Positions 197 through 18,159 of a stretch of DNA of 64,000 nt are shown here, in pieces (positions within the stretch are counted from its first letter, which is position 1; each line of letters starts with the position of its first letter). The notes under the pieces were generated by a model. That model worked only from the letters and a program-made list of their open reading frames with translations. It searched no databases and was not told where the DNA came from. The stretch is from an uncultured Bacilli bacterium. GTDB lineage: Bacteria; Bacillota_I; Bacilli_A; RFN20; CAG-631. A program made the translations under genes and the position numbers. The stretch covers positions 66,783 through 130,782 of the forward strand of contig CAKPXF010000001.1 of the NCBI GenBank assembly GCA_934201705.1, given 5' to 3'.

Positions 197-1555
197 TTAT
201 TTATTTTTCTTTAAAAGTAAAACCAATGATAAGAAAGCAAAAGATAGATAGGCTAAAGAAGATGTATTTCCCTTACAACCACTATTTGGCTTTGTTTCAC
301 TCGGAGTATTTGATGGATTTTCACTAGGATTTTCACTAGGATTATCGTTTACTTGTTCATTTACTCTAAATCTTACCTCATTTGTTGCTTCAAGTTCGCC
401 ATCGCTTGCTTTAAAAATAATATTATAAATACCACCTTTAGAAGGCTCCCAAACAAAGTAACCATTTCTTATTATACCAATTTTTTCATCCTTATATGTG
501 GCTTCATATGTTAGTTTTTTATCACCATCATATTCAAATAATTCACTTAGCTTAATTTCCATTTCTTCATTAGCGTCATAACTAGCAGCAGGCGCAAAGT
601 TATCTATAGATTTTAAATTAAATTGTGGCTTAGTGCATCTTATATAAGGAGTTGCTTCTTCTTTAGTAGTATTATCATATGATGTAATTTGTAACTTTTC
701 GATATCAACGGCAACACCAGTATTTTCAGTTGTTGCATTAGCAGAATATCCACTTGATGCCCAAAAGCCAATGTAACCTTTTTGCGTATCAAATGGGATT
801 ACTTCATCTTGTTTGTGAGTGTTTGAATAATAAGCATTTGATTGAAAATAGGATGTTTGTAATACACCATCAATATAAACCTTAAATGTTGTTCCGATTT
901 CTTTTGGACGAGGACGAGATGGATCCTTTGCATGGGTACTTGTAGCCTCAATTGTAAAATAATGATAATTATTATCACACCAATCAATGCTAGAGATAAC
1001 ACTACCCTCTTGAGGATTATCACTTTGTAAAAAGTAACGAGCTGCTCCATTTCCATCAAACGATTCATTAATTAGCATTTGAATATGAGAAGCTCCTTGA
1101 ATTCTTTCAAAGCAAATAGAAATCCAACCCTTATTGTTATACCAAGGACAAGCTGACATAGCAACATTTTCAACTTGTGTAGCATCATCATAATCAATAA
1201 ATGCAGTTAAATATAAATTTGCATAGTCAAATTGACCTTCAAAGCCAGTATCTGATGGACTAGGAAGATTTAAATTTGCATACATATCTAATCTAAATTC
1301 GTTAAATTTATTTGTTTTATATAAAGCATAATTAGATGATGCCATATTAATATTTTCCATTTTTAAATGACCTGAATCAAAAGTTGTTTTACCAGCACCA
1401 ATTCCAACAACATCCCAATCATACTTCCAATTTGCTAAATTGTTTTCTTCTTTTATATCAATACTATATTCATCACTAGCATTGACCTTTAATGATTCAC
1501 TTGTAAAAACGAATAATATACCAAAAGCTAAAGCTGATATTAATAGTTTTTTCAT
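197..1555 (-). CDS. Secreted cell-surface protein of unknown function with a Cys-containing C-terminal anchor (SENPSENPS linker, GCKG, hydrophobic helix, KKNK)
   Basis: 452-aa ORF with an N-terminal signal peptide (MKKLLISALAFGILFVFTSESLKVNA). The C-terminus has a low-complexity Pro/Ser/Glu linker, then GCKG, a ~17-residue hydrophobic segment and a basic tail. Confidence 0.7.
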   Translation of the reverse strand: MKKLLISALAFGILFVFTSESLKVNASDEYSIDIKEENNLANWKYDWDVVGIGAGKTTFDSGHLKMENINMASSNYALYKTNKFNEFRLDMYANLNLPSPSDTGFEGQFDYANLYLTAFIDYDDATQVENVAMSACPWYNNKGWISICFERIQGASHIQMLINESFDGNGAARYFLQSDNPQEGSVISSIDWCDNNYHYFTIEATSTHAKDPSRPRPKEIGTTFKVYIDGVLQTSYFQSNAYYSNTHKQDEVIPFDTQKGYIGFWASSGYSANATTENTGVAVDIEKLQITSYDNTTKEEATPYIRCTKPQFNLKSIDNFAPAASYDANEEMEIKLSELFEYDGDKKLTYEATYKDEKIGIIRNGYFVWEPSKGGIYNIIFKASDGELEATNEVRFRVNEQVNDNPSENPSENPSNTPSETKPNSGCKGNTSSLAYLSFAFLSLVLLLKKNK

Positions 1556-1561
1556 GTTTAA

Positions 1562-3235
1562 TTAGTCCTTTCTTGTTGCTTGATATAATTTGTATTGATT
1601 TGTTAGCCATTCAATATAGTTAGAAGCTTGTGATCTATAATGTGTACAAGCATCAATCCATGTTTCGCTTGGATTTTTAGTTCCAGCCCATGCTTTAGTT
1701 GCACATTCAAGATAAATATATGCTTCAGCTGTTGTATAATCCTTTGATACTTGAGCACTAGCTCCATAGAATAACATACCATCAGTAGCGTTTTTCAAGC
1801 AATTATAATTTCTAACCTTTTCAATCCAATTTCTTTCAGTTTCTGTATATTGCATAGGAATTTTATATGAAATGTCATCATTGTGAATTAAAGCAAATAC
1901 ACCACTATATGGCTTATGAGTTACATAATAATCATCCGTATATTCATAATAGTTATCACCGAATGATGAATCCTTCCATTGCTCACCTTTAATACCATAA
2001 GCACAAAGCTCATAGTTATCTTTATTTGAATACATCCAATCTAAATATTCAATTATTAAAGGAGCTTTATTTGATTTTTTATTAATAATTAAGCAGTCTG
2101 TATTTTTAGATACTTCAGCAAAGGCACCACTATTTTCAACGACATTACCATTTTCATCAACTGCATCAAGAGGATCTAAAATTGTAAATTCTGCCTTTTC
2201 ATCAATTTCTTTACATTTTCTTGCAACATCAATTAAATTAGTAATTGTTGGATTTAAAAAATATACTGCAGATTTTCCAGCTGCTAAATTTGATAATCTT
2301 TGGTTGGCAGAAATAGTTGTATTATCTCTTTCCCAAAGGCCATCGTTTACCCAATCATATTCTTGTTGCAATACCTTACCATAATTTTCACTAATCCAGC
2401 CTGGGACAACTTCCTTAATAGTATTATCATCATTATAATTAACGGCTCTATATTGATATCCAGTCGACTTATAAGCCCCAGCTAAAAGAGTAAATTCCAT
2501 ATCATATACGGGCCCTGATAATGGTGTTGTACATGTTGAAATTTCACTTTTCATTTTACGAATCATTGTATCAAAATCTTTAATAGTTCTACACCAAGTT
2601 AAAGTGCCTTTTGAAGAATCAGCTTCTTCTTTACTTTCAGTATAGCCAACCTGTCTCATGAAATCTTTTCTAACTAGTACGCCTTTTTGTTTTGTAATAT
2701 TAACCGAAGGAATGCCAATTATTTCATCATTAAAATTAGTTACTGAATAAATTGAATCACCTAGTGCATTTAAAATGTTTTTGCCACCTTTTCTAAATGA
2801 AGCTGTTAAATCAAGGACAACATCTTGGCTTAATACTGTATCTTCAAGGCCTGCTTGACCTAAATAGCTAACAGCACAATCCCATGCACTAGACCCCATT
2901 ACTGGAGAAAAAGCATTGCTAAATGTTGAGTGAGATTCATATAAAATATTAAAATTAACGGCATTACCTGTATCTTCATAAAATTTCTTTTCAATAGCTT
3001 CCTTTACGACATTTTCATCAACACCTTTAACGTATGCTCCATAAACATTACTTTCGTCAACATAAATTGTAATTGTAACTCGATTGTTTTTAACATCCTC
3101 CCATGGTAATCTTTCATTAGATGATAAATGTTCATTAGACGTGTTAGAAGTTGAATTTGTAGAATCAGTAGTACCACCACATCCTGTGATTGCTAAGCAT
3201 GCTAATACCATTACTAATAATTTGCTTTTGTTCAT
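1562..3235 (-). CDS. Lipoprotein, extracellular solute-binding protein of a carbohydrate ABC transporter (LplA/YtcQ-like, family 1 SBP)
   Basis: 557 aa with a lipobox (LAITGCGG) and Ser/Thr-rich linker. Size and composition are typical of the large sugar SBPs encoded next to LplB/LplC-type permeases, and it sits directly upstream of two permease genes. Confidence 0.75.
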   Translation of the reverse strand: MNKSKLLVMVLACLAITGCGGTTDSTNSTSNTSNEHLSSNERLPWEDVKNNRVTITIYVDESNVYGAYVKGVDENVVKEAIEKKFYEDTGNAVNFNILYESHSTFSNAFSPVMGSSAWDCAVSYLGQAGLEDTVLSQDVVLDLTASFRKGGKNILNALGDSIYSVTNFNDEIIGIPSVNITKQKGVLVRKDFMRQVGYTESKEEADSSKGTLTWCRTIKDFDTMIRKMKSEISTCTTPLSGPVYDMEFTLLAGAYKSTGYQYRAVNYNDDNTIKEVVPGWISENYGKVLQQEYDWVNDGLWERDNTTISANQRLSNLAAGKSAVYFLNPTITNLIDVARKCKEIDEKAEFTILDPLDAVDENGNVVENSGAFAEVSKNTDCLIINKKSNKAPLIIEYLDWMYSNKDNYELCAYGIKGEQWKDSSFGDNYYEYTDDYYVTHKPYSGVFALIHNDDISYKIPMQYTETERNWIEKVRNYNCLKNATDGMLFYGASAQVSKDYTTAEAYIYLECATKAWAGTKNPSETWIDACTHYRSQASNYIEWLTNQYKLYQATRKD

Positions 3236-3251: not shown

Positions 3252-4124
3252 TTATTCTTTTACTCCACCTTCAAGACTTCCTTTAATAAAGAATTTTTGA
3301 AGAAGTGGATAAATTAGTATTATTGGAATTAAAGAAATGATAACTGCTGCACTTCTTAATCCTCCATAATTTAAATTAGTATCACCAAAATAAGCCTTTA
3401 AGAATTCATCACTATCCTCAATTCGACGAATAAAAGCTTGAATTGGCCATAACTGATAGTGGTTACTATCAATAAATAATGATGCTGCAAACCAATCGTT
3501 CCACATTGCAACAGATGTATATAGTGAAATAGTTGCAATAATTGGAAGATTTAATGGTAATACTACTTTAAATAAAACCTGTAAATTAGTTGCTCCATCA
3601 AGTTCTGCTGCTTCAATTAATGCTTCAGGAACTTGACTGAAAAATTTTCTGGCTAATAATATATACCAAGCACTTACACCACTTGGTAAAATCAAAGCCC
3701 ACAAAGTATTCATTAATCCAAGATTATTAATTAAGATATAATATGGGATTGTTCCCCCACTAAATAACATAGAAATAATGAAATAATATGTAAAGAACTT
3801 TTTGAATTGTAATTTTTTTCGAGTTAGCGCATAGGCGGCAAGTGAAGTTGTAAAAATCATTAGTACTGTAGTACAAATAACTACAAATAAAGAATTTAAA
3901 ATAGAAATTACAAATTGATTACTTTCCATGCTAAATATAGCTTTATAATACTCTAAAGAAAAATCTCTAATAATTAGGCTATATCCATATAGTGTTAAGG
4001 CTTTTGTCCCGGTAAATGAAGAGTTAATTAATAATAATATCGGAATGATAAAGATTAAAGCAAAGATAACCATGAATATAACATTACATACGCTGAATAT
4101 TTTTTCGCCTTTTGATTTAATCAT
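3252..4124 (-). CDS. Carbohydrate ABC transporter permease (LplC/YtcP-like)
   Basis: 290 aa with 6 predicted TM segments and an EAA-loop motif (EAAELDGATNLQVLFKVVLP) characteristic of the MalG/LplC family. Confidence 0.85.
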   Translation of the reverse strand: MIKSKGEKIFSVCNVIFMVIFALIFIIPILLLINSSFTGTKALTLYGYSLIIRDFSLEYYKAIFSMESNQFVISILNSLFVVICTTVLMIFTTSLAAYALTRKKLQFKKFFTYYFIISMLFSGGTIPYYILINNLGLMNTLWALILPSGVSAWYILLARKFFSQVPEALIEAAELDGATNLQVLFKVVLPLNLPIIATISLYTSVAMWNDWFAASLFIDSNHYQLWPIQAFIRRIEDSDEFLKAYFGDTNLNYGGLRSAAVIISLIPIILIYPLLQKFFIKGSLEGGVKE

Positions 4125-4125
4125 G

Positions 4126-6009
4126 TTAATATGCTCCCTCCCCAGTTTTCTTTTTTAAAATCTTATTACTAATAATTACAAGAATTAATGCTATTAAACT
4201 TTGAAGCATTGACATTGCAGCAACTGCTGAATAATTACTTGCATTACCAATATTTTCGAAAACTATCATACCAATTGTATCTGTTGTATCACGTAGCATA
4301 GCACTTCCTCTAATCATAGTGTAGATTTGATCAAAGTCATCCCTAACTAAGTTACCTAAACTAAATACAACCTGAATTCCAAATGCTGGAAGTAATCCTG
4401 GTAAAGTTACATACAAGAATTGCTTAAATCCACCAGCGCCATCAATTCTAGCAGCTTCATAAATTGATTTATCAATTCCAGCCATTGCTGCTAAATAAAC
4501 AATTGTTGAATATCCAGCAGTTTTCCACATAGCACTAGATGTTAATATTAATCTCCAATATTGCGGAGAGGAATAAAAATTAATTGGTTCTTTTCCTAAA
4601 GCTTCTAAAATTTTATTAAATGTTCCTCCATCAGTTGCAAGTAAGACATATGATAATGTTGAGATAACAACCCATGAAATAAAATATGGAAAATAAGAAA
4701 CTGTTTGAACGACATTTTTAAATATGCCATTTTTTAAATAATTAAATAATACTGCTAGGGTGATAGCTATTAAAAATCCAAATATGAATTTCCAAAAGGC
4801 TAAGATAAAGGTGTTTTTCATTAACTTTCCAAAATCACTAGAAGGATTAGTAAACAAGTCAACAAAGTTTTTCATTCCAAACATTTGTGACCATTCACTA
4901 TTCCATATGCCATCATTTACACGATAATTTTTAAAGGCTATGACTATTCCGCCCATTGGAATATATGAGAAGATAAATAACATAACAACAGAAGGAAGTA
5001 GCATTAAATATAAATCGATGTTTGTAACAATTAATTTCATTTTTTTAGAATGAATTGCCTTTTTAAATAGCCCCTTTGTAATACCAATTATAATAAATGT
5101 TATTAATGCAATACCTAAAATAGAAAATATGCTAATTAGCACATAGTTTGGTGATAGTGTAAAATACACATATCCAGCAAAGCAATTTACATCCTTTTTT
5201 ACTATTGATTGATCATTCGAATTAATAATTGAAACTTTTTGTGTTATTGGTTTAATAGTAATTGAATTTTTACTTACATTGCTAACATTTTTAGAACCGT
5301 AAGCCTTAATATTACCTTTGAAATTAAATGTTATGCTTTCAAGGCCTTCAAAGTCTGCTAAGAAGAAGGTAAATACTTGTCCTTTTTTATCTTTAGCAAG
5401 CATTCCATCACTTTTAAATAAATCAATTGTTTCCTGTTCATTTAATGTTTTATTACCATCTAATAAAATTGGAGCAATAGCAGCATTTTCGTCACCGAAT
5501 TTTTGATTATCAAATTTGTAAATCATACTATTTGATGCGCCATCATTTAATTTTGTATAGTTCTTATAAGCCCCGATAAACCAAGAATCAGTAATTAATG
5601 AAACACTATCTGATTCTAAAATAAAATCTTTTGATTTTTTATATGAATAAATTCCTAAGTCTCCTCCAATATTTCCTTTTGATAAATATTGAATTCTCAT
5701 AAAAGATAATGTGGCTTCATAATAATCATCAAGTTCTTTTACTTTTTTAATTTTTACTCTATCTTCTTCACCTGAACAAACATTAGCAGCTAAAATAATA
5801 TCATTTAATTTTTTATCAACATCTTCTCTTGTAATAATTACGTTATTACCTAGTTCATCTTGATATTCTTTAGCAATTAAAATAGTTGCTTGTCCACTTC
5901 CATCTTTATTTATATCCATCGTTACATTACAACACGATGACATAACAAGGCAAATAAAGACTAAAAAGAATAAGGAAGCAACTTTTTTGAATTTATCTTT
6001 GACTTTCAT
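4126..6009 (-). CDS. Fusion protein: N-terminal ~300-aa extracytoplasmic domain (signal/lipoprotein-like) joined to a LplB/YtcP-type polysaccharide ABC permease
   Basis: 627 aa. Residues ~1-300 are hydrophilic after a signal-like N-terminus (FLVFICLVMSSCCNV). The C-terminal half has 6 TM segments and the EAA motif EAARIDGAGGFKQFLYVTLPGLLP typical of LplB permeases. Confidence 0.75.
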   Translation of the reverse strand: MKVKDKFKKVASLFFLVFICLVMSSCCNVTMDINKDGSGQATILIAKEYQDELGNNVIITREDVDKKLNDIILAANVCSGEEDRVKIKKVKELDDYYEATLSFMRIQYLSKGNIGGDLGIYSYKKSKDFILESDSVSLITDSWFIGAYKNYTKLNDGASNSMIYKFDNQKFGDENAAIAPILLDGNKTLNEQETIDLFKSDGMLAKDKKGQVFTFFLADFEGLESITFNFKGNIKAYGSKNVSNVSKNSITIKPITQKVSIINSNDQSIVKKDVNCFAGYVYFTLSPNYVLISIFSILGIALITFIIIGITKGLFKKAIHSKKMKLIVTNIDLYLMLLPSVVMLFIFSYIPMGGIVIAFKNYRVNDGIWNSEWSQMFGMKNFVDLFTNPSSDFGKLMKNTFILAFWKFIFGFLIAITLAVLFNYLKNGIFKNVVQTVSYFPYFISWVVISTLSYVLLATDGGTFNKILEALGKEPINFYSSPQYWRLILTSSAMWKTAGYSTIVYLAAMAGIDKSIYEAARIDGAGGFKQFLYVTLPGLLPAFGIQVVFSLGNLVRDDFDQIYTMIRGSAMLRDTTDTIGMIVFENIGNASNYSAVAAMSMLQSLIALILVIISNKILKKKTGEGAY

Positions 6010-6036
6010 TAATTATCACACCTTTCTTTTATAAAT

Positions 6037-6066
6037 AATATTCAAACGCCACTATTAATGGCGTTT
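6037..6066 (-). terminator. Rho-independent terminator downstream of the 1415-aa surface protein gene
   Basis: Inverted repeat tcaaacgcca/tggcgtttga with a 7-nt loop, followed on the minus strand by a T-rich tract. Confidence 0.5.
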
Positions 6067-6085
6067 GAATTGTAAATTTAAAATA

Positions 6086-9000
6086 TTAATTTTTCCTTTT
6101 TTTAAGGCATAATGCTCCAAGTAATGCAAGCATTCCGATAAGGCATGAAGCTTCACCTCTACAGCCCTTTTTATTTTCATTTGGTTTTTCTTCATTTGAA
6201 GAAGTATTATTTGTACTACTATTTATTATTTCACTTGAAGATGTGATTTCAGTAGGTGTGCTTGAAGGTTCTTCACTAGGTTTTTCACTAGGCTTTTCTT
6301 CACTATCTTTAATAACTTTATAAATTGCTAATTTTGCTTCATTTAAAACATTAGCATCCTTAGTTAATAATGATTTTTGCTCATCAGTTAAAGCATCATA
6401 AGCATTTTTAGCCATTTCATAAGCACTTTTAGCACTTTCAAGATTGTCTTTATTTACGTTAGTAATAACTTGCTCTAGTAATGCATCACATTCTTTAGCA
6501 ATTTGTTTATTTTTAATGTCATTTTTAACCTTGACGCCATCATAAGAAGTAACTCCTTCAATGTAGATGCCTTTAATTTCAAAGCCACCACTTCCTTGAT
6601 TAATCGGATCTGAAACGAATGCTTCAAGGCCAAAGTAACCACAATCCTTACTATCTTTATTTGTAGAAATATATTCTCTAACAAATGTTTTTCCACTTTC
6701 TCCACCAGTTAAAGAAATTATTGCTTTATAGCCAACGTATTCATCGTTTTCATATAAATCAATAGTTTTAATAGAAATCTTTGTATAGTTTTTATAAATA
6801 TGATGAATGTCAAGTTGACTACCTTCTTCATCAGTTGGATAATCTAATATAGTTTTAAAATCAGCAAGAGGATTACCAGCTGCATCTTTAGTCATAGGAA
6901 TAACACCATTAACACATTCAACGATTTTAAAGCCATCGCCTCCTACTAATAAAACCATATAGTTTCCTTCTTGTAGCCAGCTACCTTTATTATGATGCTT
7001 AGCAATTGAATCTGCTCTAACAATAAAGTAGAAATTACCCCACGTACATTTTTGTAGATTTGAATCAATAATCCATGTAAATTCCATTTCATTTAAAGCT
7101 TTAGCAGTTGTATAAATACTTAAATCATTTGTTGATGAATTAACAATTAAAGAGCCATCTTTAGCTTGCATATCATCAAAGCCATCTAATTCGTAAATGT
7201 TATCCTTAGTCTGTGCAAAATTATAGCCATCAATTTTATTTGCATCTTCATATTCTTTTAAAGCAATTAAGGATTGCTCTAATAAATCAGCATTTGTTAC
7301 TTCGCTCTTTTCAATATCATATAATTCATCATAAGCTTTTTTAGCGGCTAAAATAGTCCTTGAATCTTTAGCATAATTAGTAATAGGTAAATTGATTTTA
7401 GCAATTAAAGCAACTACTGGGTCAGCATATGATAAAATATCTTCATATTTATCTAATGCTTTTTTGCATTCTTCTAATTTTTTGACTAATGTAGCATCGC
7501 ATTGTGATTTTTGTTCATCAGTTAATAATTCATATTTAGCACTAGCATCTTTTACTATTTTTGCTTGCCTTTCATAATTAACTCTATTATAAGCTTCATT
7601 AACTTCGTTTAATTTTTCTAAAGCTAACTTAGCTAATACCACTACATCAACATTTTCTAAATCAGATTTAATTTGATTATATTTATTAATGTCTTCACTA
7701 GAAACAAGTTCTTTTTGAGTATCTGTTAAATTATTATAAAGATTTGTAACATTGTTAAATTGATTTACAATATCTGAATAGTTATCAGCTGTAATTGTAT
7801 CATAATTAATTTTAGTTAATTCATCTATAAATTTATTAGCATAATATAAATCCTTTGAATAAGATGATTTACTATCAGCTACATATAAACTAATTGTGTT
7901 ATTAGTTAAATCAGGTGTATTGCCACTAGCTGTAAGTGCTAAACCAGCTGATTGATTTCCCCACAAAGATTTATATGGTAATAATATTTCATTGCTATAT
8001 GTTTCACCTTTTCTTGAAGCATAATATGAAATATTTAATTTAACACCATCAGTTACATCTAAAACATCAAATGTTACCTCTGTTTTTTGTTGACAAATAA
8101 ACCAAAATGAATTTCCATCAACACCAGGAATTAAAAATGTTTGATCTGTGCCAATAACATTAATGTTACCTTCATCACATACTATTAATTGGTAACCAGC
8201 ATGAGTAATACATAAAGCGATAAAGCTTCCGTTAGCATTGCTTGGAACGATTGTATTAGTAGTATTATTAAATGTCCATAATACTTTTGAAAATTCCTCA
8301 GCTTGACCCTTAACCATCAATACAACTCCACCCCATGAAGAATCTAAAGCTGTATAGTCAAGAACGAATTTAACTGTAGCATTACCATTAAATTCTTTTG
8401 TAATGCCAAGTGATTGAATACCAGTTTGACTCATTGTACCATCATTAATTGCTGCATTGTATAGAGTTTGCCAATAATTAGCATCGCTATGATATTTATT
8501 AGCAACATCAATTAAGCTATAGCTTAACACTTCTAAATTAATTTCAACTTCGTTATTTTCTTTAACATTAACGATTACTTTATAAGTACCATTAACATTA
8601 ATCTTTATTTTTCCATCATTTCCTTTTTCGTAGAATGATCCTTGATATTTCACTTCATTAGTTGAATTATCAACAAATGATTTAACAGCATCGTATCCAT
8701 GAGCTGATTTTTCATCATCTACAAGGAAGTTAACATTAAATTCTTGACCTTCTAAAAGATTTAATGAACTTGCAAATGAATGTGCAAATCCTTCATTTGC
8801 TTCAATTTTTTCAAATGTATAGCCATTATCTAATTTACATTCATATTTAGTTGTAGGAATAATAGGTACATCTACTGCTTCAATATTGTTAACCTTCATT
8901 GTAACTTCGATATTATGATTTTCATTAATAGTACCACTACCAGTTCTACCATAAGTTACATGCTTTGTATTTCCTTTTAAAGAAGCATTAGTTGAAGTAT

Positions 9001-10333
9001 AAGAGAAAGTTGCATCGATTTCATGACCCCATGGTGATTTTGTGATTAATTCAAAATCAAATTTAACACCACTTGCTGTTTCAGTCATTTGAGTAACGAT
9101 TCTGAATGCTTTATCAAAACAGTAATAATGAAATTGATTCATGATATTTGGATCATCAGGAAAATTATTAGGAACAATGTTAGTTCCTTCTGTATAGCCT
9201 AAAGATTTATCAAATATGACAGTTCCATTAGCATCTCTTTCAATTACAGCAAAGCCCTTTGTCCAACCCCAAACTAAAGAAACAGAATTATTAGCTTGTA
9301 CCATACCAGTTGTAGCATCAATGCCAAATGTAGTATCATTAGCAAATGTTAAATATTCCCATTTCCAATCAGCCATAGGACTTAATTCAAGGCTTTGATT
9401 AGATGTAAAGTCAACCTTAGAGTTTCCACCAATTTCCTTTGTTTGATAATTAAATGTTGGTCCAGTTGCTTTCATTACATTTCCAGTAAATATAGCATTA
9501 TCACATGCACTCCAATTATCTTTACTAGCTGAATAAATAGTAGGATCAACAATACCCATTGTCATAATGATATTATGATTTTCATCAATAGTACCACTAC
9601 CAGTTCTACCATAAGTTACATGCTTGTCACCTTTTAATTGTTCATTTGTAGAAGTATAAGAAAAAGTAATATCTATATCATGACCCCAAGGCGATTTAGT
9701 AATTAATTCAAAATCAAATTTAACACCATTTGTTATTTCAGTCATTTGGGTAATAATTCTAGATGACTTATTAAAGCAATAAAAATGTGATTCATTTAAT
9801 ATATTAGCTTGATCAGCTCCATACTTTTCAAGCCCTGTTACTTTAACACCAGAATCATCTAAAGATAAGGCTTTGTCAAATACAGCCTTTCCTGTTGAAT
9901 CCTTTTCAATTACAGAAAATCCTTTTCCCCAACCCCAAACTAAAGAAAGTGAATTGCTAGCTGTTGTAATACCAGTTCCAGCATCAATTCCTTTTTCATT
10001 ACTAGTTGAAAATGTTAAATATTCCCATTTCCAATCAGCCATAGGACTTAATTCTAAAGTTTGATCAACTAAAAAATCGACTTTAGAATTACCACTAATT
10101 TTTTGTGTTTGCCAGTTAAAGTTTCCACTTACAGCTTTCATAGAATTTTCAGTAAAAGTTGCGTTAGTTGAATCAGTCCAATTTGATTGATTGTTAGTGA
10201 TAATATCACCACTAACCAAAGCATCTTCTGCAAAAATCTCTACATTAGAATCATTAATTACAAATGATGAAATTGTGATTAATGGAGCTGTTACTACTAA
10301 AGCTAATGTTAATAATTTTTTACCTTTTTTCAT
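6086..10333 (-). CDS. Large (1415 aa) secreted cell-surface protein with a tandemly duplicated ~270-aa domain, coiled-coil regions and the same Cys-containing C-terminal anchor (GCRG, TM, KKRKN)
   Basis: Signal peptide present. Two near-identical internal repeats are visible at protein level (SGNFNWQTQKISGNSKVDF...KSPWGHDID vs TGPTFNYQTKEIGGNSKVDF...KSPWGHEID) and at DNA level. The C-terminus has an EKPSEKPSEEPSS linker, GCRG, a hydrophobic helix and a basic tail. Confidence 0.75.
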   Translation of the reverse strand: MKKGKKLLTLALVVTAPLITISSFVINDSNVEIFAEDALVSGDIITNNQSNWTDSTNATFTENSMKAVSGNFNWQTQKISGNSKVDFLVDQTLELSPMADWKWEYLTFSTSNEKGIDAGTGITTASNSLSLVWGWGKGFSVIEKDSTGKAVFDKALSLDDSGVKVTGLEKYGADQANILNESHFYCFNKSSRIITQMTEITNGVKFDFELITKSPWGHDIDITFSYTSTNEQLKGDKHVTYGRTGSGTIDENHNIIMTMGIVDPTIYSASKDNWSACDNAIFTGNVMKATGPTFNYQTKEIGGNSKVDFTSNQSLELSPMADWKWEYLTFANDTTFGIDATTGMVQANNSVSLVWGWTKGFAVIERDANGTVIFDKSLGYTEGTNIVPNNFPDDPNIMNQFHYYCFDKAFRIVTQMTETASGVKFDFELITKSPWGHEIDATFSYTSTNASLKGNTKHVTYGRTGSGTINENHNIEVTMKVNNIEAVDVPIIPTTKYECKLDNGYTFEKIEANEGFAHSFASSLNLLEGQEFNVNFLVDDEKSAHGYDAVKSFVDNSTNEVKYQGSFYEKGNDGKIKINVNGTYKVIVNVKENNEVEINLEVLSYSLIDVANKYHSDANYWQTLYNAAINDGTMSQTGIQSLGITKEFNGNATVKFVLDYTALDSSWGGVVLMVKGQAEEFSKVLWTFNNTTNTIVPSNANGSFIALCITHAGYQLIVCDEGNINVIGTDQTFLIPGVDGNSFWFICQQKTEVTFDVLDVTDGVKLNISYYASRKGETYSNEILLPYKSLWGNQSAGLALTASGNTPDLTNNTISLYVADSKSSYSKDLYYANKFIDELTKINYDTITADNYSDIVNQFNNVTNLYNNLTDTQKELVSSEDINKYNQIKSDLENVDVVVLAKLALEKLNEVNEAYNRVNYERQAKIVKDASAKYELLTDEQKSQCDATLVKKLEECKKALDKYEDILSYADPVVALIAKINLPITNYAKDSRTILAAKKAYDELYDIEKSEVTNADLLEQSLIALKEYEDANKIDGYNFAQTKDNIYELDGFDDMQAKDGSLIVNSSTNDLSIYTTAKALNEMEFTWIIDSNLQKCTWGNFYFIVRADSIAKHHNKGSWLQEGNYMVLLVGGDGFKIVECVNGVIPMTKDAAGNPLADFKTILDYPTDEEGSQLDIHHIYKNYTKISIKTIDLYENDEYVGYKAIISLTGGESGKTFVREYISTNKDSKDCGYFGLEAFVSDPINQGSGGFEIKGIYIEGVTSYDGVKVKNDIKNKQIAKECDALLEQVITNVNKDNLESAKSAYEMAKNAYDALTDEQKSLLTKDANVLNEAKLAIYKVIKDSEEKPSEKPSEEPSSTPTEITSSSEIINSSTNNTSSNEEKPNENKKGCRGEASCLIGMLALLGALCLKKRKN

Positions 10334-10449: not shown

Positions 10450-11691
10450 TTAACATTTTTTTAGTTCATTTTTCATTGATGCAATAAGCATATTAAAACT
10501 GAAAAACATAGTGTGTAAAATTCCTTTACCATTCTCAGGATTGTATGATTCTGACATACTTCCATTTTCTAAAATGCCTTTATAATAGGTATTTAATGTT
10601 TTTTTATAAATTTGCTTGGCTTTATTTTTATAGCCATAATTTAAGTAAGCCTTAAAAATAAAATATGATGACACTCCCCAAATAGCACCAAGCCAATTTG
10701 AAGGATTCCCAGATGGCTCTAGATTATACATTTTTTCGTATTTTGATAAAGATCTTACTCCATATTTGGATAATAATCCACCATTTTTTAAATGCTTAAA
10801 AGCTTTTTTGACATCGTTTTTATTAGCAAAGTTAAATGCATAAGGAGCATAGCAACCAAAGAATTCTATTTTTAAAGGAATGGAATTCCAAAATGGTTTT
10901 AATCCTTTATTAAACACTTCTGTTTCATTGTTTTTAACGTTAATATCCTGTGAATAAAATATATTATCCTTTTTGTCAAATGCATGCTTATAAATTGAAT
11001 TTATAAGGCTGTTTTTTTCTTTTTCATAAAAAGAATAGTCTAAATTTTTCATTTTCATTATTTCTATTAATGAATTGTATTCATCCACCATTGTAGAATT
11101 AAATAGAATATCAGCACTACTTGAATATGGCCTTCCAAAAACTGTTGGATTATTATCTACACCTATCATGATGTCGCTAATGTAATAAAACAATCCTGTT
11201 TTCTTATCAAATTGATTTTCCTTTAAATACTTTAAATATAAGCAAAGCTTATTGACATCAATAAATGAATAATCATTATTTAATTTGCAGGCTAATAAAG
11301 CTGATTTTATTAAATAACCCTTTAAGGAATTTTTAGCATTTTCTTTACTACAATAAGTATCATTTATAACATTACATCTTAGCATTATTGGAGTAAAACC
11401 ATCATTTTCCATAAAATCAGTAAAGTTTAAGACATCGCCTTTAGCAGCTTCGTTTACTAGCTTTCTATAATAAGTATAATCAAAATCTTTATCATTTTTT
11501 AAAAGTTCTACAATGTCATTTAAAGAATAAATTGACCAATAAGAATCCCAATCCCAAAGAGTATTATGATAAGCAAGGCCTGGCTCTACAAAGCTATGCT
11601 TTAATTTTCCTTTTGGTGCACTTATAACATTAAAGGCATACTTTTTTAAGAGCTCAAATAATATTTTTTCTTTTTTATTCAACTTATGCAC
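10450..11691 (-). CDS. Putative (alpha/alpha)6-barrel glycoside hydrolase (GH63/GH37-clan-like); no signal peptide, likely cytoplasmic
   Basis: 413 aa. The N-terminal region has a trehalase-like WDxY signature (GLAYHNTLWDWDSYWS). It lies within the glycan-utilisation locus. Family assignment is tentative. Confidence 0.45.
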   Translation of the reverse strand: MHKLNKKEKILFELLKKYAFNVISAPKGKLKHSFVEPGLAYHNTLWDWDSYWSIYSLNDIVELLKNDKDFDYTYYRKLVNEAAKGDVLNFTDFMENDGFTPIMLRCNVINDTYCSKENAKNSLKGYLIKSALLACKLNNDYSFIDVNKLCLYLKYLKENQFDKKTGLFYYISDIMIGVDNNPTVFGRPYSSSADILFNSTMVDEYNSLIEIMKMKNLDYSFYEKEKNSLINSIYKHAFDKKDNIFYSQDINVKNNETEVFNKGLKPFWNSIPLKIEFFGCYAPYAFNFANKNDVKKAFKHLKNGGLLSKYGVRSLSKYEKMYNLEPSGNPSNWLGAIWGVSSYFIFKAYLNYGYKNKAKQIYKKTLNTYYKGILENGSMSESYNPENGKGILHTMFFSFNMLIASMKNELKKC

Positions 11692-13232
11692 CTTCTTGCT
11701 TCTTCTTTATCATCTTTAATGGTTACATTGCCAATGATTCTTTTTAAATCATTAATTAATTTGTCTCCATATAATTCATGGCCTTTAGAATTTGGGTGTA
11801 AGGCTAATGTGGCATTTGAAAAATAGCTAGCATCGTAAGGTATATATTCATGAGCATCAATAATGATAATATTGTTATGCTTTTTATATATTTCTATCAT
11901 TTTGTTTGTTATGTCTTTTAATGAATAATCTACACCTTTTTCATCTGATCTCCAAATAGGAAGTAAAGCAATTATTTTAGCTTTAGGAAAATAATTATTA
12001 ATGGAATTAATTACAATTTCCATGTTTTTAGTTAATTCTTCAAATGCTTTTTCTTTGTTTCCATTTCCCATTGCAAAGGAGTTTGTACCATTAGCTATAA
12101 AAACATATTTTGGATTAATATTATATGTTCCTAAAAGATTGTAATCGTTAAATGTTCTTCCAGAAACTGCAAAATCATAGCCAATAAAATTATAGTATAA
12201 AGTGACTTTACTAAAGTAAGTTGATGCCGGATTAAAGCATTCACTTCCTTCAGTTATAGAATCACCAAGGAACACTACCTCATAATCTTTTTTAACGGCT
12301 TTAAAGACTTTGTTATTTTCAATTTTTATACTTTTAATTGCTACACAAAATCCTGTTGGAAACACTAAAGTAACCCGATTATAATCATTATCCTTATTAG
12401 TAATTGTAAATGTTTCAATATAATGCTCACCTTTATTTACCCTTTTTAAAGGAACATCGCGCTTTTCTCTATTAACTAGTAATCCAAATTGAAATTCTAA
12501 GTTTTCAACCTCGCTATCCATAATTTTATAATCAATAGTAATTGTTTTTGAATTTGTATACATATCAAACATTATATTTGAATCATATTGCCCAGAATTT
12601 CTAGTTGTACATTTTATATTTTGAATAATGTTTAATCTATCAAAATAAACGCCATCCTCTTCAACATGATAGTATAAATAATTTACAACAACCTTTTCTT
12701 TAATCATTTTAGCAAGTGTTTCATCTATTTTGTAATTAGTAGCATCTCTTTCAGTAAATGTTACATTTGATATTTTGGCTTCAACTCCCTTTTTTAAGTA
12801 AAAGGCTAAATCACTTATTTCATTTCTAGCATTTCCATAGGTATCTACCATTTCATGTTTATTTACATCTATATAAACACGATATTTACTTATTTTAATA
12901 TTAACGTGGTATGTCTTATTAATATCAAATCTTGTGTTGTTATGCTTATCCTTTAATAAATCAGATTTTCTTTTCCAATCTGGTGTATAGCCTCCAAAGC
13001 TAATTTTATTTCCATCCTTAAAAACTGTGAATTTTGATTGATAAATATAATCACTAGTAAATTTATCAATTTCGCCGACATTTACAAGCATTATTTCATC
13101 ATCAAAGATAAATTCATCATCTTTTTTAGTATCATTTGGGATTTTTAAAATTTCAAAATCAAAGGAAATTTCTACAATATCTTTTTTGTAATTTTCCTTT
13201 AATTTTATTTTATAAATTGGATTAGTTAGCAT
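11679..13232 (-). CDS. SGNH/GDSL-family hydrolase (carbohydrate esterase/O-acetylesterase-like) with an N-terminal beta-rich domain
   Basis: The C-terminal ~200 aa carries SGNH blocks: GDSITEGS (block I), GTNSF (block III) and HPNSKGHE (block V D/HxxH). No signal peptide. Confidence 0.65.
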   Translation of the reverse strand: MLTNPIYKIKLKENYKKDIVEISFDFEILKIPNDTKKDDEFIFDDEIMLVNVGEIDKFTSDYIYQSKFTVFKDGNKISFGGYTPDWKRKSDLLKDKHNNTRFDINKTYHVNIKISKYRVYIDVNKHEMVDTYGNARNEISDLAFYLKKGVEAKISNVTFTERDATNYKIDETLAKMIKEKVVVNYLYYHVEEDGVYFDRLNIIQNIKCTTRNSGQYDSNIMFDMYTNSKTITIDYKIMDSEVENLEFQFGLLVNREKRDVPLKRVNKGEHYIETFTITNKDNDYNRVTLVFPTGFCVAIKSIKIENNKVFKAVKKDYEVVFLGDSITEGSECFNPASTYFSKVTLYYNFIGYDFAVSGRTFNDYNLLGTYNINPKYVFIANGTNSFAMGNGNKEKAFEELTKNMEIVINSINNYFPKAKIIALLPIWRSDEKGVDYSLKDITNKMIEIYKKHNNIIIIDAHEYIPYDASYFSNATLALHPNSKGHELYGDKLINDLKRIIGNVTIKDDKEEARRCIS

Positions 13233-13234
13233 AA

Positions 13235-15592
13235 TTAAGCCTCCACTTCATAATACCCTTCTTTAAACAATTGATTTCTATAATATACATTTCCATTACT
13301 TGGTACAATAATTATTAGTTTATTAGCATTTATTTTAAAATGATAAATGCCAATGCATGTTAATACTTTACAATCAATGCTTATATTTTGATTATTAGGA
13401 TTTAAGTTAATTGAGCCATCATCATTAATATTTGCTCCCATTAATCCGCGAATCATAAATTCAGCAATAGGACTAAACATATGGTGATTTAAGGAATTTG
13501 TTAGCTCAAAATCCTCACACAGGGTAGTTTGATTATTATCTATCCAATATCTAAATGATGGATATTCTTTCCTTAATAATATTTTTAAACCAATATCAGT
13601 TCTATGGTTTTTAGCCAAGCTATCAAATACGTATTTGACACCTAAAATACCCATATGAATAGAAAAATCATTTTTTATTAAATAATTTACTATTTCATCA
13701 GTTTTATTAATAATATTAAAGTATGTTAAGCAAGCTAGTCCAGTTAAGCTAGTAACGTTACTATATTTATTAATAATAGCTTTTTTAATTTTATTTGCCA
13801 TGTCTAGATAATATTGCTCTTTATTATTATTTAATAATTTTGAAAATTTAGTTAAATATAAAGACATTTCCATAAAATAAGAGCTAGATATTAATGTTGT
13901 ATCACATACTTCAAACTTAACATTTTTAGGATAATTCCAATCACCAAGCCCAATAGAAACTAAATAATTATTAGAATTATTAATTAAATAATTATAATAT
14001 TTTTCAAGATGAGGATACATTTTTATTACTTCATCTTTATCACCATAATAGTAGTACATAGCATCAGTGATTCTAAACATAGCAACATCCCAAGCTGGAC
14101 CTGTGCCCCAGTTAAAACCCCACCCACACGTTGGAATAATACATGGAATTTGCCCACAAGGTCTTTGAGCAACCTTAAAATCATCAAGCCATTTTTTATA
14201 TGCTTGATGCATATTGAATGTATAAACTGATGTTTCTAATGATAATTGTGCATCTCCTGTCCACCCATTTTTTTCACGATGAGGACAATCTGTTGGAAAA
14301 TCCACATAGTTTGATTCAATGGCTTGAATAGACATATCATATAGCTTGTTTAATATTTCATTACTTGATTTAAAATAGCCCTCTTTAGTAAAGTTAGTTC
14401 TTATAAGATAAGCCTTAATATCTTTAACTTCTACATTGCCTTCAATTAAGACATAACGAAAGCCATGATAAGTAAATAAAGGCTTATATGTATCTATATT
14501 ATTAGATAAAATACAAGTATCTGTTTGATACTCTACATTTTCATTAAAAATATACATTGAATTAGAAGAATTATCTAAATGATTATCAACTAATCTATCA
14601 GAATAAATTATTTTTATAGTGCTACCCTTTTTTCCTAAAAAGGTAGCCTTACAATATCCTGCCATATTCTTTTTAAAATCATAGATTATTTTATTATCAA
14701 GTTTTTTAATAATAGCTGGAGCTATTTCTTCAACTTCACTAATTCCTTCAATATATGATGGCTTTAAAATACCACCAGCAGGAGTAGTAAGCGATACTAA
14801 ATGGTATTCTTTAACGGCATTAAAATCATGAGTTTCTCCAGTTCTTAAAGCATTGGAAGTAATTTCTCCATATGAATATTCCCAAGATTTGTCTGAGTAT
14901 ATCTTTTTACCATCAATATCAAGCTGGAATAATAGCTTAGCATTATCTCTCCAAGGGGCATGATTAAATCCCCAAGTATCTATAGTTGTTTGATTATACC
15001 AGCCATCACCAACTATTACTTCGATTTTGTTGATACCTTCTTTTAAGAATTTTTTAACATTATAGGTTGAATATAATACTAACTTATCATATTCACTAAA
15101 GGAAGGCTCTAATACTTTATTTCCAACCTTTTTGCCGTTTATTTTTAACTCAAATAAACCAAGGCCAACTAAATCAACAATAGCATATTTTTTTATTGCT
15201 TCAATATTTATTATTTTTTTAAAATATAAAGCTTTATTGCCAATTTCTTTTGTATCACTAACAAAATGAAAGCCATTAGATATCCATAAAGCATTATTAT
15301 CAAAGCCGTTTACTAAGCCTGAATAAAAATAGTTTTCATAAATAATAGACTTATTTATAGTAAGCGTATAATCATATCTTTCATGCTCTTTAAGTTTTAA
15401 ATTTACTTCAAGATATTGATTTTGACTATTTTGCTTTGTTTTAAAAACAATTTCATCATTGTTTTTAATTATTAATTCAACGCTTTCTTGCTTAATAACA
15501 TTTTCAAGGCGCCATGAAAAGTATAGATAATCTATAATGTTATATGGTATTAAAGAGCCATTTAATAAAACATTTGTTAGCTTACTTTCCAT
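13235..15592 (-). CDS. Alpha-L-rhamnosidase, glycoside hydrolase family 78
   Basis: 785 aa. Contains the GH78 catalytic-region signature DCPHREKNGWTGDAQL (DCPxRE.xGWxGD) and a typical length and domain layout. Confidence 0.75.
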   Translation of the reverse strand: MESKLTNVLLNGSLIPYNIIDYLYFSWRLENVIKQESVELIIKNNDEIVFKTKQNSQNQYLEVNLKLKEHERYDYTLTINKSIIYENYFYSGLVNGFDNNALWISNGFHFVSDTKEIGNKALYFKKIINIEAIKKYAIVDLVGLGLFELKINGKKVGNKVLEPSFSEYDKLVLYSTYNVKKFLKEGINKIEVIVGDGWYNQTTIDTWGFNHAPWRDNAKLLFQLDIDGKKIYSDKSWEYSYGEITSNALRTGETHDFNAVKEYHLVSLTTPAGGILKPSYIEGISEVEEIAPAIIKKLDNKIIYDFKKNMAGYCKATFLGKKGSTIKIIYSDRLVDNHLDNSSNSMYIFNENVEYQTDTCILSNNIDTYKPLFTYHGFRYVLIEGNVEVKDIKAYLIRTNFTKEGYFKSSNEILNKLYDMSIQAIESNYVDFPTDCPHREKNGWTGDAQLSLETSVYTFNMHQAYKKWLDDFKVAQRPCGQIPCIIPTCGWGFNWGTGPAWDVAMFRITDAMYYYYGDKDEVIKMYPHLEKYYNYLINNSNNYLVSIGLGDWNYPKNVKFEVCDTTLISSSYFMEMSLYLTKFSKLLNNNKEQYYLDMANKIKKAIINKYSNVTSLTGLACLTYFNIINKTDEIVNYLIKNDFSIHMGILGVKYVFDSLAKNHRTDIGLKILLRKEYPSFRYWIDNNQTTLCEDFELTNSLNHHMFSPIAEFMIRGLMGANINDDGSINLNPNNQNISIDCKVLTCIGIYHFKINANKLIIIVPSNGNVYYRNQLFKEGYYEVEA

Positions 15593-16484
15593 AATAGTCC
15601 TTATATCTTTTATATAGATTTCTTGCAGAAGGATAAATAGATTGTGGACTCATAAAATGAGAGAATTCAAATGTAATCATTTTAGAAACAATTGGTTTAA
15701 CAACGTTGATTTTGCTTTTTAAAACATTAAAATCAACAGGCATTAGACCATTTGGACTTTTATCAAACATTTCAATGTTTGCCCAAATTTCAATTCCTTG
15801 CTCATCCATTGCTTTTTTAGCTTGTTTAAAATACTCTGATCTTTGTTCATAAGGAGCTGATCCATCTTGAAAAGCACAAAAGTCAATATTGCCTTTTGAA
15901 TCTTTAAGGATTTCTTTCCATTCTTTATATGTTTCTTCTGGTGATAAAGGATGATCCTTATCAGCCCATTCACAATAAAAGAATGGTGAAAACATAACCT
16001 TTTTGTCAGGTGTTTTATCCTTGCACATTTTAGCAAGTGTATTTTGAAGATAAGCAATATTTAAAACGTTTGAGCCAACCTCATGTGGAATATACCAACC
16101 ATAAAAAGATTTATAATGGCCATACTTTTCACATACCTCATCAATTAATAATCTATTACATCTAATTTCTTCATCAGCGTCTCCTTCATTCCATGTAAGA
16201 TTTGAAATGTAAAGGCCAAATATTACCTTCATATTTCTTTTTTCACATTCTTTGAAGATAAAATCAGCAAAATCTGGATCATCTTCATTTAAATGTGGTA
16301 AAACCTTTGAAGGATAAATCATTTTTCCATTAAAGCCAGCACGAATTGTAATTACTGTATCAATTCCTACTTCTTTCATGTAATCTAAATCCTTTGCCCA
16401 TTGCTCATTATCCCAGTTAGATGATGGGATGTCGTATGTAATTTCGTCAATAAATGTTCCTGAAATTGGATAATTTTTATTCAT
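15582..16484 (-). CDS. DUF4434-family TIM-barrel protein (putative glycoside hydrolase)
   Basis: 300 aa. The N-terminal GTFIDEITYDIPSSNWDNEQWAKDLDYMKEVGIDTVI resembles the DUF4434 family. It sits in the glycan locus. Assigned from memory. Confidence 0.5.
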   Translation of the reverse strand: MNKNYPISGTFIDEITYDIPSSNWDNEQWAKDLDYMKEVGIDTVITIRAGFNGKMIYPSKVLPHLNEDDPDFADFIFKECEKRNMKVIFGLYISNLTWNEGDADEEIRCNRLLIDEVCEKYGHYKSFYGWYIPHEVGSNVLNIAYLQNTLAKMCKDKTPDKKVMFSPFFYCEWADKDHPLSPEETYKEWKEILKDSKGNIDFCAFQDGSAPYEQRSEYFKQAKKAMDEQGIEIWANIEMFDKSPNGLMPVDFNVLKSKINVVKPIVSKMITFEFSHFMSPQSIYPSARNLYKRYKDYYGK

Positions 16485-16533
16485 AACTGTCTCCTTAAAT
16501 AAATTTATAATTTAGAGTTTATAACAAAGTTTG

Positions 16534-18159
16534 TTATTCATCTCTTTGTGATTTTGTTGATACTCTTTTAATGTTTACCTTCATATTTGTACTAAAGGTA
16601 CCACAATTGTCTAAAAACACATCAAATGTTTTATTTTCATCATTTGTACAATCATAAAAGTTTATATTATCGGTATATCGCATATATAAAGCATTTTTAC
16701 TTGAAAATTCACAATTTTTAACGGTAATATTTTTATGGTAATATGGTTCTACACTGGTTGATTTAAATTCCGGAATAGAAACAACTCCACTTTTATTCAT
16801 AATAAATCTAGTGTTTTGTATTAATACATTATCTACAGGGCTAGATTCATACCAAAAGTTAGTATCACCTGTAAATAATAAATCCATTTCTGTTATACAA
16901 TGATCAATGATTACTTCTCCTCGCGTTTGAAATCTTAAATGTGTATTTGCTTTTCCAAATTCGCAATTAGTAATATAAACATTAGGATTTGTAGATAAAT
17001 TTTCAATTAATGAGCCTTTTGAAACTTCTTTAATTTTTTTATTTAAAGTAAAGATATATTTTTTACCTTCTTGCTTAATGCTTAATATTTTTGCTTCATC
17101 TATTTTTTCTAATGAATGGCCATTATATATAGCAATATCGTCATTAACATCAAATATTTTAAAGGCATCTGATTGCCCTAAGCAAATGGCTGTTAATTCA
17201 TAACCATTTAAAGAGTCGAAAACATAATAATTAGAATGAATATTAATTGCATCATCAATAGTTCCTGTAATTATACTATTTTTAATAATTAAGTTTCCCT
17301 TTAAGCTAACTGCATGAATGCCATCAGCCGTATTTGAAATAATGCCACAAGAGATATCATCATAAAACATTTTTAATCCATCAATCGTTAAGTTTTTAGT
17401 ATAAATAGGAAGAAGCCCCATGCCTAAGCCATTAACTATTCGATAGTTTGTTACTTTGATATTTTCACAATTAAAGATAGTTAAATTTGATATATCACGA
17501 TTATTCATACATAATATTAATATTGAGCCAACATTATAAGGTGGAATGTTTTTACCCTTAAAGATGACATATTCACCTTCATGATAAGCAAGAAGTGAGC
17601 AAGCACTATCGCCCCAAGGTAACTCACATTTATCCATATCTTTATTTCCAATTAAGACAACGGGCCAGCTTAAGCCCTTTTTTGTAATTGGGTCAAACTC
17701 TTGTAAGAAGATATATGTTTGATGTAATGTTTCATCCTTCCAATATTTACTTTTAGGTATGAATTTTCCATCATTTACTTCATATGGAAATCTATCATCA
17801 ACCTTAACCTTTATATAGTCTTCACCTTTTTCTACTAAAGTCATTTGGGTATTAAACGATCTATCATATTTAACAACAGCATTTTTGATTTCTATATTTT
17901 TAGAATTTGCAATTATAATTGGAGTTAAAGCTCCATTTAAATAAAGTGTAGCTCCATTAAAGTCTAAAACAATATTTTCTTTGTTATTAATGTATATAGC
18001 TGTATCATGAAAATTACTATATCTAGTAGTTGAACAAAAATATTCAATATTATCAAGGGGAATAGTATCTTCCTTATAATAATTTAATTTTTTTTCGTTA
18101 ACCTTATAATATGTATTGCTTTCAAAATCCATTTTTTTATAAAATGCTTTTTCTTTCAT
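16534..18159 (-). CDS. Right-handed parallel beta-helix repeat protein (pectin-lyase-fold; putative glycoside hydrolase/lyase), cytoplasmic
   Basis: 541 aa with repeated hydrophobic/Asn-rich beta-helix-like segments (NIKVTNYRIVNGLGMGL, IIKNSIITGTIDDAINIHSNYY). No signal peptide. Confidence 0.5.
   Translation of the reverse strand: MKEKAFYKKMDFESNTYYKVNEKKLNYYKEDTIPLDNIEYFCSTTRYSNFHDTAIYINNKENIVLDFNGATLYLNGALTPIIIANSKNIEIKNAVVKYDRSFNTQMTLVEKGEDYIKVKVDDRFPYEVNDGKFIPKSKYWKDETLHQTYIFLQEFDPITKKGLSWPVVLIGNKDMDKCELPWGDSACSLLAYHEGEYVIFKGKNIPPYNVGSILILCMNNRDISNLTIFNCENIKVTNYRIVNGLGMGLLPIYTKNLTIDGLKMFYDDISCGIISNTADGIHAVSLKGNLIIKNSIITGTIDDAINIHSNYYVFDSLNGYELTAICLGQSDAFKIFDVNDDIAIYNGHSLEKIDEAKILSIKQEGKKYIFTLNKKIKEVSKGSLIENLSTNPNVYITNCEFGKANTHLRFQTRGEVIIDHCITEMDLLFTGDTNFWYESSPVDNVLIQNTRFIMNKSGVVSIPEFKSTSVEPYYHKNITVKNCEFSSKNALYMRYTDNINFYDCTNDENKTFDVFLDNCGTFSTNMKVNIKRVSTKSQRDE

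Follow-up and report, generated by a model that had tools for sequence, protein, structure and literature searches.

The DNA examined here (the window) is a stretch of 64,000 nucleotides from an uncultured Bacilli bacterium (GenBank assembly GCA_934201705.1, contig CAKPXF010000001.1, positions 66,783 to 130,782), and our subject is a gene on its minus strand in which the first permease of an ATP-binding cassette (ABC) sugar importer is preceded, within the same polypeptide, by a long N-terminal module. The protein belongs to a known transporter class and carries a new, unannotated accessory module. According to the listing of open reading frames (ORFs) in the window, the gene is a single uninterrupted ORF at 4126..6009 (-) that starts with ATG and encodes 627 amino acids (aa). 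A Shine-Dalgarno sequence, AAAGGTG (6019..6025, -), can be read from the DNA 9 nt 5' of the ATG at 6009, and a terminator-like hairpin with a 14-bp stem and a T-rich tail (6040..6070, -) lies between this gene and the surface-protein gene upstream; a scan for sigma-70 promoters was uninformative (40 matches, against 40.5 in shuffles). On the same strand, permease 2 (LplC/MalG-like, 290 aa; 3252..4124, -) starts 2 nt past the stop codon of the fused gene, and the cassette is completed by a large lipoprotein substrate-binding protein (SBP) of 557 aa with the lipobox LAITGC (1562..3235, -). No ABC ATPase containing LSGGQ is encoded anywhere in the 64-kb window; a shared ATPase of the MsmX/MsmK type is usual for systems of the carbohydrate uptake transporter 1 (CUT1) group in Firmicutes.

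The only Pfam family matched in the 627-aa protein is PF00528 (BPD_transp_1), at residues 415-614 with 46.3 bits against a cutoff of 26.4, and NCBIfam models of UgpA/GlcT-like permeases match residues 333-621. The best sequence match in the PDB is AlgM1 (4tqu_M, 301 aa), which aligns end-to-end with residues 333-625 (E = 5e-47), so that the C-terminal ~300 residues constitute a full permease and residues 1-330 are a true extension. The complete transmembrane domain (TMD) of permease 1, residues 331-627 with the stop codon, occupies 4126..5019 (-), and AlphaFold2 (AF2), supported by hydropathy, gives it six transmembrane (TM) helices, modelled at 331-358, 393-424, 441-457, 482-510, 527-565 and 590-620. 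The motif EAA-x3-G-x9-[IV]-x-LP, which in ABC importers contacts the ATPase subunit from a cytoplasmic loop ahead of the last two TM helices, is present as EAARIDGAGGFKQFLYVTLP at residues 518-537 (4399..4458, -), as read from the sequence and the alignment of fused homologues, in which Y517, A519, D523, G524, P537 and G538 do not vary. As a type-I importer TMD of the LplB/AlgM1 (CUT1) group, the permease half is ordinary.

The extension begins with a putative lipoprotein signal peptide (residues 1-25; 5935..6009, -) that comprises a basic n-region, MKVKDKFKK, a hydrophobic core and a lipobox, V-M-S-S before the cysteine. The N-terminus reads MKVKDKFKK-VASLFFLVFICL-VMSS-C26, with a hydrophobic stretch at ~9-30 after the basic residues; the PS51257-type PROSITE lipobox pattern [LVIMFSTAG]2-[LIVMFYSTAGCQ]-[AGS]-C falls within the first ~35 residues, and Cys26 is invariant in 23 of 23 aligned fused homologues, each of which has S, G or A just before it. 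As judged by these sequence rules, residues 1-25 show every feature of a lipoprotein signal peptide. There follows a predicted extracytoplasmic alpha/beta domain of an undescribed family (residues 26-285; 5155..5934, -), which contains the motifs RDGSG, SGxEDR, SFMRIQY, GLESITFNFxG and CFxGYVYF and coincides with a 248-aa hydrophilic stretch (35-282) of balanced charge (32 K+R, 35 D+E). It ends at a very hydrophobic junction helix (residues ~288-312; 5074..5148, -; hydropathy peak 2.96) that is predicted to cross the membrane from outside to inside; in the AF2 model the final long strand of the ectodomain, 269-285, runs directly on into this helix, modelled at 289-311. A short basic connector, predicted to be cytoplasmic and of the form G-x-F-K-[KR]...S-K-K...N (residues 313-330; 5020..5073, -), then leads, as the basic loop KGLFKKAIHSKK, into TM1 of the permease.

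Because the loop after the junction helix is strongly basic, as the positive-inside rule would require, and because permeases of the AlgM1 and MalF type start in the cytoplasm, we infer that this loop, and with it the N-terminus of the permease proper, is cytoplasmic. The connector is the counterpart of the charged C-terminal tail in stand-alone forms of the module (described below) and of the long low-complexity linker that separates junction helix and permease in three other fused proteins (P0024, P0040 and P0051), and these tails and linkers likewise fit a cytoplasmic location of the junction. The ectodomain is accordingly predicted by such rules to lie outside the cell, tethered N-terminally by a lipidated cysteine and C-terminally by a TM helix. 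An earlier note on this sequence had described a lipoprotein-like N-terminus, a hydrophilic domain, a junction helix and an LplB-type permease, an architecture that it considered unusual for the family. Hydropathy and family matches agree with this description (the domain measures ~260 aa and the permease is complete), and permeases of the AlgM1/LplB type are indeed ~300 aa long and have no ectodomain. The same note had allowed that the N-terminal domain might prove to be cytoplasmic, but the topology rules place it outside.

Fused and stand-alone forms of the module

The junction DNA holds runs of A7 and A6, and the module, which other organisms encode as a separate gene, has the look of a surface protein anchored at its C-terminus; it might be supposed that a frameshift or assembly error at this A-rich site has joined a surface-protein gene to a permease gene, and the earlier note had also cautioned that a frameshift or sequencing error might join two genes. 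However, when the full protein was searched against a database, 22 homologues of the same fused architecture (581-633 aa, 35-95% identity, 96-100% coverage) were found in independent assemblies, and the extension is conserved throughout the alignment of the 23 fused sequences. The fusion stays in frame even at 35% identity, where the DNA of the junction necessarily differs, and it does so in many independent samples and metagenome-assembled genomes (MAGs). There is no stop codon or Shine-Dalgarno sequence in the junction DNA, Met324 (the sole candidate for an internal start) occurs in only 7 of the 23 aligned sequences, leaving no conserved internal start, and the amino-acid sequence of the junction loop is conserved. 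Among species-representative genomes, 11 loci were found, all in MAGs (uncultured Bacilli, Erysipelotrichaceae, rumen and gut Clostridia and Ca. Scatosoma) and every one with an in-frame fusion, and one of them, on the MAG contig L008 from an uncultured Bacilli bacterium, encodes a protein 100% identical to that of the window. Since the fusion recurs in 22 homologues from independent assemblies and on this identical contig, we regard a frameshift or misassembly as excluded, with a negligible residual probability.

An exhaustive phmmer search with residues 1-323 against 1.84 billion cluster representatives shows that the module also exists on its own: it returned 37 representatives, comprising 15 fused proteins (598-721 aa), 16 stand-alone proteins (310-363 aa) and 6 fragments. 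The module is rare, with 37 clusters at 50% identity among all those representatives, and has so far turned up solely in uncultured Bacilli (Erysipelotrichaceae-like) and Clostridia of human, ruminant and other guts, including the rumen. A word-indexed search with the N-terminal 323 aa missed a 93%-identical protein (P0001) that was present in the database, so its empty result is an artefact of sensitivity and not a sign of orphan status; a word-indexed profile search with the stand-alone modules returned just two of their own number. Negative results of word-indexed searches cannot be read as absence for low-complexity proteins of AT-rich genomes. A separate oddity is the sequence P0022 (432 aa, on a European Nucleotide Archive contig of 1338 bp), in which a ThiF-like N-terminus precedes the last strand of the module, its TM helix and a portion of the permease; a chimeric assembly or a miscalled gene is the probable explanation, not a third architecture.

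Stand-alone modules have the same layout as the extension, that is, an N-terminal signal or anchor, the ectodomain and a TM helix, ending in a charged tail. In all seven stand-alone lineages with readable gene context (P0037, P0045, P0050, P0061, P0063, P0042 and P0055) the gene lies directly upstream of an LplB-type permease 1 gene, which it overlaps by 8-17 nt in five lineages, the gap being 3 nt in one of the other two and 78 nt in the last. On contigs that extend further, permease 2 and the large SBP come next, and this order of genes (module, permease 1, permease 2, SBP) is confirmed in 7 split lineages and 12 fused loci. Split cassettes and the window cassette are homologous, with identities of 38% for permease 1, ~36% for permease 2 and, over its full length, 32% for the SBP; the window SBP has no Pfam match of its own, whereas two SBPs of split cassettes (L004/L005 and L020) carry PF01547. 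The question raised by the earlier note, whether orthologous loci encode the domain as a separate gene, can be answered positively for distant relatives, in which that gene immediately precedes the permease gene.

A tree of the modules has an entirely fused clade, which bears the lipobox and includes the window protein, and another clade in which fused and stand-alone forms interleave. This second clade contains pairs of sisters with one fused and one stand-alone member, P0045/P0024 (59% identity), P0063/P0056 (48%) and P0050/P0057 (45%), to any of which the window module is ~25% identical. The locus of the fused P0024 is collinear with that of the stand-alone P0045, in the order module and permease 1, permease 2, a glycerophosphodiester phosphodiesterase (GDPD) gene, SBP, a 162-aa membrane protein and beta-helix proteins. 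The interleaved tree, the sister pairs and the collinear loci together imply that the genes of the module and permease 1 have undergone fusion or fission at least three times. Repeated fusion or fission of adjacent genes is a Rosetta-stone signal, which indicates that both products act together in one complex. Because the module gene always adjoins, or is fused to, permease 1 of a homologous cassette, it is very probable that the module is a dedicated extracytoplasmic accessory subunit that is physically associated with permease 1.

The same gene order could be read as the mark of a biogenesis or stability factor, such that the hairpin of signal and TM helix helps to insert or orient permease 1, or protects the complex, and the ectodomain has no role in the transport cycle. 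The module is always encoded right before permease 1, often with a gene overlap that suggests translational coupling, and it has repeatedly been fused to the N-terminus of the permease, as such a factor might be. Yet a confidently folded ectodomain of 258 aa, conserved across classes, exceeds what an insertion aid would need, and ordinary LplB/AlgM1 permeases insert without any such module, so that we consider this explanation very improbable.

The ectodomain and its possible role

Neither the window protein nor any of nine stand-alone relatives has a Pfam or NCBIfam match in the module at E <= 1, and a profile search of PDB sequences with the module returned noise only. The earlier note had proposed structure prediction followed by a fold search: AF2, given an alignment of 21 sequences, produced a confident model of the ectodomain (predicted local distance difference test score 92, predicted template modelling score (pTM) 0.89), for which Foldseek found no structural relative of the whole domain in the PDB (template modelling score <= 0.15). 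The predicted fold consists of an N-terminal beta-beta-alpha-beta-beta sandwich, a middle part of helices and strands, and an all-beta C-terminal part. Across 54 family members the well conserved positions are glycines, prolines and core hydrophobics, with only two polar positions, S79 and R105; this is not a catalytic signature, and the ectodomain is probably non-catalytic.

A hidden Markov model of the module matches the window protein at 2e-105 along with 53 other full-length modules, in which 54 sequences G279 is found 53 times, Y280 42 times and V281 44 times. We propose a family defined by a signal or anchor, an ectodomain of ~235-260 aa that ends in [CV]-[FY]-x-G-[YF]-V, a TM helix, and then either a cytoplasmic tail or a permease, its gene being situated directly 5' of an LplB-type permease gene or fused to it, as it is in the window. 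Database entries for members of this family are named 'sugar ABC transporter permease', 'putative aldouronate transport system permease protein' or 'hypothetical protein', and we found no description of the module in the literature.

The closest known systems are the alginate importer of Sphingomonas sp. A1 (AlgM1M2SS-AlgQ, PDB 4TQU) and the CUT1 importers of the LplB/YtcP 'aldouronate type', which share with the window cassette a permease 1 of six TM helices with the EAA motif, a partner permease (LplC/AlgM2-like) and an SBP that is unusually large, at 500-560 aa. Their permease 1, in contrast, is ~300 aa long (for example, P0025 and P0026) and has a short cytoplasmic N-terminus without signal peptide, ectodomain or additional TM helix; we found no fourth membrane component described in the literature for importers of this type. 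Among type-I sugar importers there is a parallel for a permease 1 that incorporates a sizeable extracytoplasmic domain: the P2 loop of MalF in the E. coli maltose transporter, which docks the SBP in the MalFGK2-MalE complex (structure 2R6G), although the likeness would be one of function and not of origin. P2 is inserted between TM3 and TM4, whereas the extension in the window is N-terminal to the whole TMD and has a signal peptide of its own; the window permease aligns only to MalF residues 243-434, and MalF-like relatives (P0030-P0033) carry PF16237 and PF16296, while the window protein carries only PF00528. To our knowledge, P2 never occurs as a separate gene. The position of the extension and its lack of similarity rule out a permease of the MalF-P2 type.

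We also considered LppM (Rv2171) of Mycobacterium tuberculosis (PF21946, PDB 2NC8), which has the same layout of lipobox and C-terminal TM helix but is shorter by ~100 residues and has no link to an ABC importer. Sequence comparison does not support homology to it, as PF21946 matches none of 10 module sequences at E <= 1, although it matches LppM itself at 6.9e-54, and hhalign gives a probability of 0.4%.

The earlier note had suggested a tethered accessory or substrate-capture domain that delivers oligosaccharide to the transporter, and while gene fusion and gene order strongly support the accessory part of this suggestion, capture and delivery are unsupported. Substrate capture would make the ectodomain a second tethered receptor that feeds oligosaccharide or polymer to the SBP or the pore, in the manner of GlnPQ of Lactococcus lactis and OpuA, where the TMD of a polytopic ABC importer and an extracytoplasmic domain are likewise parts of one polypeptide. 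Fusions of substrate-binding domain and TMD with a cleaved signal peptide are an established precedent, the domains of GlnP being N-terminal and placed after that peptide. The ectodomain is, moreover, predicted to be extracellular and held beside the translocation pathway, it belongs to a locus for glycan utilisation, and it diverges fast, as do the surface proteins encoded with it. However, the domains fused in GlnPQ and OpuA are canonical SBPs that replace the free SBP, whereas the window module has no SBP or carbohydrate-binding module signature in Pfam and no SBP-like match in the PDB fold search, and its cassettes always retain their own large SBP. A fusion of the GlnP/OpuA kind is ruled out, since the domain is not a two-lobed SBP and the SBP gene is kept, and we think it unlikely that the ectodomain captures carbohydrate in some other form.

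Our preferred reading is that the gene is a natural fusion that unites two parts of a single ABC sugar importer, the N-terminal one being an accessory subunit for docking or hand-off, and we give this combined explanation a probability of roughly 0.6. The polypeptide would be exported by the Sec pathway and cleaved by signal peptidase II, and the ectodomain would come to lie on the outer side of the membrane, with the lipidated Cys26 tethering one end and the junction helix the other. That helix would return the chain to the cytoplasm, so that TM1 of the permease would start with its N-terminus inside, as in AlgM1 and MalF. The ectodomain would then be a non-catalytic accessory subunit present 1:1 with the translocator, most probably a platform that docks or positions the unusually large lipoprotein SBP, or else a surface for the hand-off of oligosaccharide. 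ATP hydrolysis would presumably be provided by a shared ATPase of the MsmX/MsmK type encoded elsewhere. While its genetics make an accessory nature of the module very probable, docking or hand-off as its specific role is a tentative proposal, for which we would put the chances somewhat short of even.

Several points weigh against this reading. Lipidation and cleavage of the signal peptide are predicted from sequence rules, and the clade without a lipobox shows that a lipid anchor is not essential to the module. The full-length AF2 model is poor in the permease half (pTM 0.49), so that the seating of the ectodomain on the TMD cannot be read from it and the competing explanations are not separated, and no particular partner is singled out by experiment or by a model of the complex. 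The module is also the fastest-evolving part of the cassette, with 33-41% identity between classes against 56-69% for permease 1; such divergence fits a surface-exposed domain with weak or diversifying constraint better than it fits a tight docking interface. Finally, most importers of the LplABC/AlgM type work without such a module, and it cannot therefore be generally needed for the docking of large SBPs.

The glycan locus and the significance of the module

Two genes for surface proteins flank the cassette. One, of 1415 aa (6086..10333, -), is syntenic with the cassette in loci of the fused type and has a C-terminal anchor of the form GCRG...TM...KKRKN; the other, of 452 aa (197..1555, -), comes after the SBP in every fused-type locus that reaches past it and has the anchor GCKG...TM...KKNK. 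At the C-terminus of both proteins a linker rich in Pro, Ser and Glu leads through a 'GC[KR]G' motif to a TM helix and a KK-rich tail, a shared end that looks like a sorting or anchoring signal, and neither their bodies nor these 'GC...TM...KK' tails have a match in Pfam, NCBIfam or the PDB. The synteny of both genes with the transporter cassette extends from Bacilli to Clostridia MAGs.

This association might mean that the module serves as an organiser and links the importer with the 1415-aa and 452-aa surface proteins encoded beside it, as a Gram-positive counterpart of the 'utilisome' of Bacteroidota. Homologues of both proteins flank the cassette in all fused-clade loci of sufficient length, Bacilli to Clostridia, their C-terminal TM anchors would place them in the same membrane plane, and the divergence of the module tracks that of the 452-aa protein (identities of 83/78/53/41/35/37% for the module against 81/75/54/49/36/38%). 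Similar rates of divergence are to be expected, however, for any surface-exposed proteins, and in split-type loci and loci of the P0024 type the module is present while homologues of these surface proteins are absent, their place being taken by a polytopic membrane protein of ~160 aa and beta-helix proteins. Permease 1, permease 2 and the SBP are the sole partners that every module-bearing locus has, and we therefore hold such an organiser to be even less probable than substrate capture. The conserved polytopic membrane protein (157-167 aa) is encoded after the SBP gene in all split-type cassettes and in the fused P0024 cassette (L001:7301-7780, L004:16521-17009, L020:4968-5471, L021:10526-10999 and L022:7721-8209). 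It has no family assignment and no counterpart in the window, and may be a further component of the split-type branch.

Upstream of the cassette, genes for glycan processing occupy 10450..18159 on the same strand (-). They encode a GH63/MGH1-like protein, a 517-aa protein with a C-terminal GDSL/SGNH domain, a GH78 alpha-L-rhamnosidase, a DUF4434 protein and a 541-aa protein with a weak match to a GLAA-B beta-barrel. The split locus L021 likewise carries rhamnosidase and GDSL genes, and these genes, together with the GH63-like, GDSL esterase and GH78 genes that flank the window cassette, point to a Gram-positive polysaccharide-utilisation locus. From the flanking GH78, GDSL and GH63-like genes, the substrate is probably a rhamnose-containing oligosaccharide. 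A second pair of fused and split genes occurs in the same locus: the GDSL-esterase-domain and GH63-like proteins form one 928-aa ORF in a rumen Clostridia MAG (L012:914-3700), while their counterparts in the window are separate genes with a 13-nt overlap (10450..11691 and 11679..13232).

Directly upstream of the glycan locus are genes for a GGDEF diguanylate cyclase with an N-terminal membrane or sensor region (19365..20723, -) and for a DUF697 protein (18316..19350, +), both of which could be regulatory. Elsewhere in the window, two paralogous ORFs of 331 and 329 aa (58165..59160, - and 60700..61689, -) are 94% identical and lie 1.5 kb apart.

The accepted picture of ABC sugar importers in Gram-positive gut bacteria is a three-part machine consisting of an SBP, two permeases and an ATPase. 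A membrane component that is conserved, repeatedly fused and unannotated means that a subset of these importers has an additional part, which current annotation either calls a 'hypothetical protein' or hides inside a 'sugar ABC transporter permease'; the module is probably an unrecognised extra subunit of this type of transporter. More speculatively, and well short of an even chance, it could represent an unrecognised fourth class of structural subunit in type-I ABC carbohydrate importers of Gram-positive gut and rumen anaerobes, with a fold unrepresented in the PDB, that organises substrate delivery and on which transport depends. If this were true, the module would sit on the translocator and either dock the large SBP or couple the importer to glycan-processing proteins at the surface in a 'Gram-positive utilisome'. 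The pattern of fusion and fission offers an unusually clean and directly testable prediction of protein-protein interaction, and the family merits a domain model in Pfam or InterPro. As its loci carry rhamnosidases and esterases, the module is also relevant to the competition of Firmicutes for complex dietary or host glycans.

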